Made by a program: the position numbers and the translations under genes. This document shows, piece by piece, positions 35,209 through 37,116 of a DNA stretch of 64,000 nt (position 1 is its first letter; each line of letters starts with the position of its first letter). A model generated the notes under the pieces. That model was not told the DNA's origin. It saw only the letters and a list, made by a program, of their open reading frames with translations, and did not search any database. This stretch comes from Opitutaceae bacterium (GTDB taxonomy: Bacteria; Verrucomicrobiota; Verrucomicrobiia; Opitutales; Opitutaceae): positions 32,810 through 96,809 of the forward strand of contig JADJTK010000016.1 of NCBI GenBank assembly GCA_016711225.1. Reading direction: 5' to 3'.

Positions 35209-37116
35209 GTGCGCCCGACATGACCGTGAACCAAGAAGTGAAAGTCTTCGATGTGAGAATCCAAACACAAAGCATTAGACGAAAGCAACTGCGACGCCGC
35301 GAGGCGCCGTGGGAAGGAAGCTGGAGTCAAAACGGCGAGCCCACGAACAGAAACGTGCTCTGAGGCCGGCGACATGGACAAGTTGGCACCACACAACGCA
35401 ATCCAGGATTCAGTGTCGCAGGTAAAGCACGGGGTTGTGCCGGGAAGGTTCACGGCCTTACTCGGGGAGACCTGCCCGACAGGCGCCGCGCGGCGAGCGC
35501 GGAGCACCGATGACGACAACGCCGTCGGGGAGCGGGCAGGAGTCAGCCGAGGTCGTAGTAGTGCCGGACACGAGCCGGGAGTAGAGCGCCGGAGCCCAGG
35601 GCCGGACTCGAATGGACCGGAGGGTCTCACGCAGGCACGAAGGACCAAACTGGTTGGGACCGCGGAGACCGCGGCGTCCTTGCCACCGACGTTGAAGCCG
35701 ACCGGCGGAGTCGGAGGGCAGCGGACGCCAGCGGCGGAGAAAGACCGCGATCAGGAGGAGCGATGGCAGCGTATCTGGAGCTCGGAGAACCTGAATGCCG
35801 CCTGGCGTAAGGTCCGGGCCAACGGCGGGGCGGGCGGCGTCGACGGGATGTCGATTGCCGCTTTCCCGGCGTTTCTGAAGCTCCATGGGGAGCGGATACG
35901 CAAAGCCCTGCAGGAGGGGCGGTACGAACCGTCGCCGCTGCTACGGTCGTTTATCGCCAAGAAGGACGGGGGCCAGCGACCGCTGGGCATCCCGACGGTG
36001 CTGGACCGACTCATCCAGCAAGCCCTCGCCCAAGAACTGGGCGGGGTGTTCGAGGAGACGTTCAGTGAGCATAGCTACGCCTACCGGCCCGGCCGCAACC
36101 CGCATCAAGCGGTGCGCTCGATCCGCAAATGTATCGCTGATGGACTCAGCGATGCGGTGGACTGCGATCTGAAAGGTTTCTTTGATCACGTGGATCACGA
36201 CCGGCTCATGAGGCTGGTGGCCGCGCAGGTTCGGGATGTGCGCATCCTGCGCCTGATTGGCCGCTTCCTGCGGGCTGGGGTGGTGCTACCCGATGGCAAG
36301 CGCGAGCCAACGCTGCGGGGCGTGCCCCAAGGCGGACCGCTCTCGCCGCTGTTGGCCAACATCGCCCTGACTCCGCTGGACCGGGAACTGGAGAAACGAG
36401 GCCTGCGCTTTGCGCGCTACGCCGACGACTTCCTGATCCTGGTGCGTACCCGCGTCGCAGCGAAGCGGGTGATGGCCGCCGTGGTTCGGTTTGTGGAAGG
36501 AAAGCTCAAGCTGCTCGTCAATGCGGCCAAGAGTCGCGTGGCGCCCTTGGCGCACTGTACGTTCCTGGGTTTCCGGTTCTCCCGCGGAGAGATCCGCTGG
36601 AGCCACGAGGCCGGGGAGCGTTTTGTCACGGAAGTCCGGTCACTGACCGGGCGCACGTGGAGTGTGTCGATGGAAGAGCGACTGCTGGCTCTGCGGCGCT
36701 ATATGACCGGTTGGATCAACTACTACCGGTTGGGGCGCAACTACGCGGAGGTGCAAGCGCTCGACCGCTGGGTGCGCCGGCGGGTGCGGCAGTGCTATTG
36801 GAAGCAATGGAAGCGCCCACGCTGTCGGCGGAGGAATCTGCTGCGGTTGGGCGCCGATCCAGAGCAAGTGCATCTGTGCAGCCGGTCCCGCAAGGGCTGC
36901 TGGCGCATGAGCACCAACTCCATCGTGCAAGCCGCACTCACCAACGAGTGGCTGAAGGAACAAGGAGTCGTCTCCCTGCAGGAGGCCTGGCTCGCCTACC
37001 ATTATCCGCAAAGGCGCCGCACGCGTCGATGAATGATGGAGACTGGAATCGCCCGGTACGGACCCGTACGCCGGGTGGTGTGGGGGCCGGCGGCTAACTA
37101 CCGCCGGCTACCCGAT
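35209..37116 (+). mobile_element. Full-length group II intron, class C (attC-type), 1908 nt
   Basis: The 5' end is GTGCG. DV has a CGC triad and a 2-nt bulge (CGCCCGGTACG GACC CGTAC-GC-CGGGTG). DVI has a bulged A (GGG-G-GCCGGCGG ... CCGCCGGC-TA-CCC). The 3' end is ..GAT. The internal RT/maturase ORF has no endonuclease domain. The intron is inserted just 3' of an attC hairpin, antisense to the cassettes. Confidence 0.85.
35374..37032 (+). CDS. Group II intron reverse transcriptase/maturase
   Basis: WSSENLNAAWRKVRANGGAGGVDGM, RPLGIPTVLDRLIQQA, YADDFLILV, and maturase X (YMTGWINYYRLG). The true start is probably near 35690-35760 (for example TTG at 35692), because the ORF-track N-terminus overlaps ribozyme domains I-III. 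Confidence 0.85.
   Translation: MDKLAPHNAIQDSVSQVKHGVVPGRFTALLGETCPTGAARRARSTDDDNAVGERAGVSRGRSSAGHEPGVERRSPGPDSNGPEGLTQARRTKLVGTAETAASLPPTLKPTGGVGGQRTPAAEKDRDQEERWQRIWSSENLNAAWRKVRANGGAGGVDGMSIAAFPAFLKLHGERIRKALQEGRYEPSPLLRSFIAKKDGGQRPLGIPTVLDRLIQQALAQELGGVFEETFSEHSYAYRPGRNPHQAVRSIRKCIADGLSDAVDCDLKGFFDHVDHDRLMRLVAAQVRDVRILRLIGRFLRAGVVLPDGKREPTLRGVPQGGPLSPLLANIALTPLDRELEKRGLRFARYADDFLILVRTRVAAKRVMAAVVRFVEGKLKLLVNAAKSRVAPLAHCTFLGFRFSRGEIRWSHEAGERFVTEVRSLTGRTWSVSMEERLLALRRYMTGWINYYRLGRNYAEVQALDRWVRRRVRQCYWKQWKRPRCRRRNLLRLGADPEQVHLCSRSRKGCWRMSTNSIVQAALTNEWLKEQGVVSLQEAWLAYHYPQRRRTRR

Follow-up and report, generated by a model that had tools for sequence, protein, structure and literature searches.

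A chromosomal integron of an Opitutaceae-like bacterium harbors a group IIC-attC intron

The stretch of DNA analyzed here (64,000 nt from an Opitutaceae bacterium; assembly GCA_016711225.1, contig JADJTK010000016.1, positions 32,810 to 96,809 of the forward strand; hereafter, the window) carries an array of integron cassettes in which one recombination site, an attC, is split by a 1908-nt element. The questions raised by this locus are what the element is and whether it can still move by its own means. An earlier note, made from the sequence alone, had proposed an intact class C group II intron, inserted at an attC site and antisense to the cassettes. The Rfam matches, the encoded protein, the target site, the orientation and a phylogenetic tree all agreed with that proposal. 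Domains V and VI (DV and DVI) were present, the reverse transcriptase (RT) was a group II enzyme, and the boundaries restored an attC. Positions 35209..37116 (+) very probably constitute an autonomous group IIC-attC intron (a ribozyme plus an RT/maturase) located on the bottom strand of an integron attC and oriented antisense to the cassettes. The intron is a well-supported but ordinary addition to the known group IIC-attC family, found in an Opitutaceae-like chromosomal integron.

Boundaries, target site and exon recognition

On the + strand, the 5′ junction (35208|35209) reads ..GTCGCTGGT|GTGCGCCCGAC.. and the 3′ junction (37116|37117) reads ..GGCTACCCGAT|TGGCCCGG... As the earlier note had stated, GTGCG is found at 35209; the element ends in CCCGAT at 37116, and the conserved GUGYG and AY termini of group II introns are present. 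The termini were conserved in about 60 relatives, and the flanks diverged exactly at these positions. The same ends are found in close relatives, whose lengths of 1901-1913 nt bracket the 1908 nt of the window intron; nothing is therefore missing from it.

The 5′ exon (35124..35208, +) was identified as the bottom strand of an attC from attC repeat families and from the fold of the joined exons. It comprises an R′ box (GGCGAAC, 35124-35130), L boxes and a terminal CTGGT, and the sequence between GGCGAAC and CTGGT is an imperfect palindrome. The 3′ exon begins with the remainder of the R″ box (TGGCC, 37117..37121, +); the stop codon of a cassette open reading frame (ORF; 37136-37390, -) lies 15 nt past it. 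The insertion is located between GT and T of R″ (CTGGT|TGGCC) on the attC bottom strand. When joined, the exons give GTTGGCC and fold into an attC-like imperfect hairpin with the R boxes paired. An uninterrupted paralogous attC of the same subtype in the same genome (contig C1, C1:250601-250706) was 88% identical across the junction (..CCCTGTAGTCGCTGGTTCGCCCGG..). The earlier statements that the intron adjoins the attC hairpin and that its removal restores a GTTGGCC box were thus upheld by the fold and by this empty paralogue. Four uninterrupted attCs in the window, at 31245, 37385, 38166 and 42615, had been described as carrying CTGGT|T; the motif was located at 31327-31332, 37465-37470, 38247-38252 and 42695-42700, respectively. 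No orthologous empty site was detected with a joined-flank query in 120 genomes of the same family; this search yielded attC-level similarity only, in addition to the paralogous empty attC of the genome itself.

The orientation was established from the integron itself. The integron integrase gene intI (43201..44703, core 43693-44610, +; TIGR02249, 361 bits, cut-off 265) is divergent from the cassette array, and all small ORFs between the attC repeats lie on the - strand. As intI and the cassette ORFs occupy opposite strands (+ and -, respectively), it follows that the + strand corresponds to the bottom strand of the attC and that the intron has the antisense orientation relative to the cassettes. 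Group IIC-attC introns are described as inserting in the R″ box of the attC bottom strand at the consensus TTGT/T, opposite to cassette transcription (PMC3001079, PMC7923331). The GT|T position observed here agrees with that site and supports the interpretation given in the earlier note.

The intron RNA contains a counterpart to its target. Intron-binding site 1 (IBS1) is formed by the four bases TGGT with which the 5′ exon ends (35205-35208, +), and the complementary exon-binding site 1 (EBS1), ACCA (35388..35391, +), is located in the terminal loop of a hairpin of domain I (DI), GUUG-GCACCACA-CAAC; EBS1 ACCA is complementary to IBS1 UGGU. Among relatives from public genomes and metagenomes, IBS1/EBS1 was TTGT/ACAA in 27 cases and TGGT/ACCA in 12, and there were no discordant cases. 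The changes were coupled, the second base of IBS1 varying with the third base of the loop motif. Furthermore, the UGGU/ACCA state occurred in separate branches (Opitutaceae, Kiritimatiellae, Coraliomargarita and a gammaproteobacterium). The covariation lends independent support to the placement of the 5′ boundary and to the mechanism of recognition. Nearly all relatives, like the window intron, have T at the start of the 3′ exon (IBS3; T 37117 here); EBS3 was not located.

The ribozyme and the intron-encoded protein

The core of domains I through III (DI-DIII) was matched by two Rfam models, RF02001 (D1-D4-3) at 35293-35456 (+; 124.4 bits) and RF01998 (D1-D4-1) at 35505-35569 (+; 40.3 bits), both of which exceeded their gathering scores. 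An RNAalifold consensus for the first 600 nt of 54 relatives contained 82 conserved pairs at intron positions ~6-438, spanning DI, DII and DIII. The window copy retains 77 of these (93.9%); the 54 relatives retained 90-100%.

The 3′ domains were examined by folding the last 84 nt to the minimum free energy (MFE), by Rfam and by covariation. DV (37049..37078, +) consists of a 9-bp lower and a 3-bp upper helix with a GACC loop, and it contains the CGC triad (37050-37052) and the AC bulge (37068-37069). DVI (37081..37114, +) contains a bulged branch-site A at 37110. For the covariation analysis, the DV/DVI region was aligned from 30 distinct relatives, and the pairs were counted on the MFE structure. 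Standard pairs occupied 98.1% of the cells, compared to 85.4% in shuffles and 40-48% when the pairing partners were slid; 10 of the 25 pairs had changed on both sides in a compensatory manner. No variation was seen in the triad, in the first base of the bulge or in the branch A (column A64). The CGC triad and 2-nt bulge reported earlier for DV were thus recovered both in the fold and in the alignment. For DVI, the earlier note was right about the bulged A but misplaced it by one: it was said to lie 8 nt before the 3′ end, whereas A37110 is the seventh base from that end and is followed by six.

The Rfam search for DV/DVI that had been suggested as a check gave a divided answer. At the gathering score, RF00029 matched nothing in the window as a whole, and a search of 3.6 kb at E<=5 was likewise negative. 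When a 171-nt segment (36980-37150) was searched, a match over model positions 1-77 appeared at 37047-37116, stopping exactly at the proposed 3′ end; it is full-length, but its score of 36.8 bits is below the gathering threshold of 40. A clinical IIC-attC intron, used as a control, scored 46.4 bits. The other suggested check, folding of DI-DVI, had a favorable outcome, with 77 of the 82 DI-DIII pairs kept and the DV and DVI hairpins backed by covariation.

The intron-encoded protein (IEP) was analyzed within the long open frame 35374-37032 (+). Its sole Pfam domains were RVT_1 (6e-35) and GIIM (1.7e-16); no HNH or other endonuclease domain was detected in the Pfam scan of this frame. With the YADD motif at 36418-36429, this is the RT with an X domain and no endonuclease domain that had been described earlier. 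The NCBIfam group II RT/maturase model TIGR04416 scored 359 bits (cut-off 300), and retron and Drt models scored <=55 bits. The best matches among solved structures were the GsI-IIC RT (6AR1, 354 bits) and the group II RT/maturase 7uim (319 bits; we take this to be the E. rectale IIC intron), followed by LtrA (136 bits) and the 6me0 maturase RT (107 bits). The alignment to the GsI-IIC RT ran end to end (query 2-410 to chain 5-415). As its closest solved relatives are class C RTs, the IEP is of the class C type, and a retron or diversity-generating retroelement assignment, which the earlier note had raised as a possible objection, does not fit these scores. The dN/dS values of the IEP against four relatives were 0.17-0.32, from which the RT appears to be under purifying selection.

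The most likely start of the IEP is TTG 35692, giving a gene at 35692..37032 (+) and a protein of 446 amino acids (aa) with an X/GIIM domain. The start was placed there because the homologous starts of relatives lie there: the corresponding codon is ATG in two close relatives (L017 and L018) and GTG in the copy on contig C4 (see below), and in all of the proteins compared the start codon is followed by the same K-P-T-G-G-V-G-G-Q-R. An ATG at 35763, right after an AGGAGG and 71 nt downstream of TTG 35692, was also considered. It is one base out of the RT frame and opens a 15-codon ORF (35763-35810), and it was rejected.

Taken on its structure, the intron may be called intact, a description supported by the open 446-aa frame and the 77 retained DI-DIII consensus pairs.

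Relatives and copies elsewhere in the genome

The IEP was compared with those encoded on 72,556 plasmids. The best matches were full-length at 44-50% identity and included introns of class 1 integrons, which lie antisense beside dfrA16 (E. coli pEc5706), blaIMP-4 (K. pneumoniae pIMP-SZ1501) and arr-2 (pRIVM_C018792_2). These three represented the clinical S.ma.I2/Kl.pn.I3 type in a maximum-likelihood (ML) tree of 30 IEPs, from which a B. thuringiensis IEP was left out (truncated to 302 aa). In this tree, a branch with 99/97 support separated all 23 introns at attC sites, including the three clinical class 1 introns, from the others, and the window IEP was nested among Opitutaceae relatives. 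Six other plasmid-borne class C introns fell outside this clade; four of them lie directly after terminator-like hairpins, and one lies behind the DVI of another intron. At this level of support, the tree places the window IEP in the attC-targeting lineage, apart from the terminator-targeting class C introns. Nearly all of the ~60 relatives (50-88% identity) are inserted at [T/G]GT|T followed by GTTRRRY-like sequence.

The clinical type shares many features with the window intron: insertion at GT|T of R″ on the bottom strand of an attC, in antisense orientation relative to the cassettes; a 5′ GU[G/A]CGCCC and a 3′ end GGCUACCCGAU followed by T; a DV with a CGC triad, 2-nt bulge and 3-bp upper helix; and an IEP of ~420-450 aa in the same clade, without an endonuclease domain. 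However, IEP identity to the window is just 44-49%, the pEc5706 intron (the one clinical copy in which both elements were read) has UUGU/ACAA instead of UGGU/ACCA, the window IEP starts with TTG, and RF00029 scores about 10 bits less in the window. The hosts also differ; the window intron lies in a large chromosomal integron of an Opitutaceae-like host, while the clinical introns lie in plasmid-borne resistance integrons. The nearest family members are environmental, from Verrucomicrobiota, the wider Planctomycetes-Verrucomicrobia-Chlamydiae (PVC) group and deltaproteobacterial metagenome-assembled genomes (MAGs), e.g. Opitutaceae JASGHD010000001 (88% IEP identity) and Nibricoccus JASGHG010000001 (70%). 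These share the length (1901-1946 nt), ends, EBS1 loop, target motif and DV/DVI, and the window copy has no qualitative distinction from them. The terminator-targeting class C introns (GsI-IIC of Geobacillus, with RT 6AR1, and plasmid copies in P. aeruginosa, Ligilactobacillus and Staphylococcus) have in common with the window intron the CGC triad, the GGUGGUGUG linker, an RT devoid of an endonuclease domain that can be aligned along its entire length (354 bits to 6AR1), and insertion after a hairpin with a short IBS1. They differ in residing after rho-independent terminators, sense to the upstream gene, and in falling outside the attC clade.

Three full-length copies of the intron were found in the genome, and the RT frame is open only in the window copy. 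The copy at C52:642290-644199 is 95% identical and full-length, with a frameshifted RT gene. The copy at C4:47278-48791 is 97% identical; it is cut by the contig end, has a frameshifted RT gene and carries GGT in place of GAT at its 3′ end. That these two copies arose by duplication of the window locus was considered and rejected. Homology ends within 8-15 nt of the intron ends, and they are therefore regarded as independent insertions.

In addition, about ten internally deleted derivatives with exact intron ends reside in other attCs, along with several 3′ fragments. The derivatives follow two designs. One, of 251 nt, joins intron positions 1-142 and 1805-1908, with a hairpin in place of the interior; in the other, of ~336 nt, positions 1-159 and 1759-1908 are joined by a GGTTTTGCG..CGCAAAACC hairpin. 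Copies of these designs are located in the window at 29439-29689, 33187-33437 and 34159-34494, and others on contigs C6, C21, C24, C31, C36 and C38. Identity between copies of the same design is 92-98.5%, whereas that between their attCs is 58-85% and the cassettes around them are unrelated. Every copy or derivative in this genome with a preserved 5′ end occupies the same position in its attC.

Both designs lack EBS1, most of DI, DII-DIV and the ORF. Without EBS1 and most of DI, the derivatives cannot choose a target themselves, yet they sit at the exact canonical position. For this reason, independent movement of mini-introns was considered unlikely, and the simplest account is that a full-length intron was inserted first and its interior was subsequently lost by recombination or conversion between intron copies. 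A different history, in which the window intron is an autonomous master whose ribonucleoprotein (RNP) mobilized the 251/336-nt derivatives in trans, so that they spread via RNA to at least 10 unrelated attCs, was judged very doubtful. If it were true, and DNA recombination were not responsible, the derivatives would be the first MITE-like (miniature inverted-repeat transposable element) non-autonomous group II elements.

The 3′ fragments (DV-DVI, 57-150 nt) were found in the window at 28522-28578 and 30731-30831 and elsewhere at C1:245150, C12:57553, C36:8585, C52:638543 and C24:26173. They still adjoin a T[CG]GGC R″-like 3′ exon. Upstream, they are fused to unrelated repeats, i.e. a common CGGATTTCACGGATGGCGCGGATCGATCC block, CACAGAGG-rich repeats and GGCCACCGCGGTGG palindromes. 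Because fragments of the 150-nt class have kept the hairpin of the 336-nt design, they derive from that design.

Metagenome contigs L010-L013 (the intron of P0008, 82% IEP identity) carry the same intron and attC 5′ exon with three different 3′ exons. The neighbors of these introns on the - strand encode a TrwC relaxase, an Rce1-like protein and a 102-aa ORF. Recombination between copies of the intron, if it linked a single attC to different genes, would be expected to produce such an arrangement; the idea that cassettes are formed in this way has been summarized previously (PMC7923331).

The supply of target sites was surveyed using a hidden Markov model built from ten local attCs. There were 149 attC-like sites in the genome, of which 128 were empty, 12 were followed by an intron 5′ end and 9 were of other kinds. 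A second full integron integrase gene is located at C1:348032-348949 (362.7 bits), and a third, at C31:22103-22913, is split and has an internal TGA. Given these additional integrases and the distribution of the 149 sites over ~20 contigs, the genome must contain several integrons or attC clusters.

The remainder of the window array was also annotated. Two cassette ORFs on the - strand matched families of unknown function (42272-42607, DUF6572, 102.6 bits; 38251-38907, DUF4304, 51.2 bits). Of the other eight tested, one had a sub-threshold match to DUF2070 (18.2 bits, cut-off 30) and seven had no family match; cassette ORFs without a known family are usual in chromosomal integrons. An IS110-family transposase gene (40813-42240, +; NF033542, 124 bits, cut-off 140) lies inside an attC of the array, flanked by attC halves at ~40619-40698 and 42268; its orientation, like that of the intron, is opposite to that of the cassettes. 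A tRNA gene (28069-28139, +; 59.8 bits) is located just past the distal end of the array.

Mechanism, activity and meaning

A route of movement can be proposed from what is known of class C introns. The + strand RNA would fold into DI-DVI and splice with the help of the IEP. The targets of the resulting RNP would be single-stranded hairpins of the attC bottom strand, recognized by their stem-loop, by the 4-bp EBS1 (ACCA)-IBS1 (UGGU) pairing and by IBS3 (T), and the RNP would reverse-splice between GT and T of R″. The intron RNA would then be copied into DNA from a primer that, because the IEP has no endonuclease, would be supplied by replication. The GC skew of the 128-kb contig was too noisy to call the lagging-strand template. 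Since the R box of the attC is split, the cassette at 37136-37390 is probably no longer excisable through that attC. Read-through from the cassette promoter (Pc) is likely to be hindered by the intron.

Whether the intron is still active is a matter of balance. Activity is suggested by the open frame, the purifying selection, the match between EBS1 and IBS1 and the invariant catalytic residues. Several observations weigh on the other side. There is no second identical copy in the genome, the nearest being the 95% and 97% identical copies with frameshifts; there is therefore no sign of very recent movement. The 128 empty sites suggest low activity. The start codon of the IEP is TTG, not ATG; the proportion of consensus pairs retained is at the low end of the family range; and the RF00029 score fell short of its gathering threshold. 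No + strand promoter for the intron was identified. A scan of the - strand revealed no sigma-70-like outward promoter in 35209-35764 (the consensus of this host may differ), and the only sigma-70 consensus match was at 37029-37001 (-). Some of these points could be explained by a genuine IIC-attC intron that has recently died, with its frame still open, its ability to splice or move lost, and decay under way as in the other copies. The frameshifts in both other full-length copies, the GGT end of one of them, the ten or so deleted copies and several 3′ fragments, and the five broken consensus pairs accord with such a history, as do the missing identical copy, the unused attCs and the TTG. Death of the window copy is nevertheless countered by an open 446-aa frame that has YADD and aligns from end to end with an active class C RT of solved structure, by the low dN/dS, by the perfect match of EBS1 to its own IBS1, and by a DV triad, bulge and branch A that are the invariant residues of the family. 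On account of the absent recent second copy, the TTG start and the many empty attCs, inactivity was considered a possibility of some weight, if still an unlikely one.

Two other explanations concern not whether the intron is alive but what it is and why it is there. Class C introns generally insert after any stable hairpin, and IIC-attC introns reportedly retain some use of terminators (PMC7923331); the element could then be a generic terminator-targeting class C intron from outside the attC lineage that landed by chance behind an attC hairpin. This is extremely improbable, given the position of the IEP inside the attC-site clade and apart from the six plasmid introns (four of them after terminator-like hairpins), the shared target motif of nearly all relatives, and the single attC position shared by all copies and derivatives in this genome whose 5′ end is preserved. 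The alternative that the host keeps the element for an effect in cis (locking of the cassette, a block of Pc read-through, or outward promoters or stop codons) has a precedent in S.ma.I2, which blocks Pc transcription and has an internal outward promoter that drives the next cassette (PMC3001079). The split R box and the persistence, in many attCs, of derivatives that retain only the intron ends would also be in keeping with it. However, the promoter scan found only the match at 37029-37001 (-) and nothing in 35209-35764, purifying selection on the RT is expected of a mobile element and not of a cis-acting block of DNA, and occupancy is low (12 of 149 attCs); retention for a cis effect was accordingly regarded as improbable. 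An autonomous IIC-attC intron therefore remains the preferred reading.

The current understanding of the IIC-attC family is unchanged by this finding. It adds to the family a cleanly delimited, structurally intact member from an Opitutaceae-like (Verrucomicrobiota) chromosomal integron. The related loci reveal that introns of the attC-targeting lineage, for which clinical class 1 integrons have been the main object of study, occur widely in MAGs of PVC bacteria and deltaproteobacteria; in addition, the EBS1/IBS1 switch within the family (ACCA/UGGU versus ACAA/UUGU) constitutes a natural covariation test of how the target is read. With a single intact copy alongside two broken copies, some ten deletion derivatives and ~128 empty attCs, this genome is a convenient natural system for the study of intron activity and cassette mobility.

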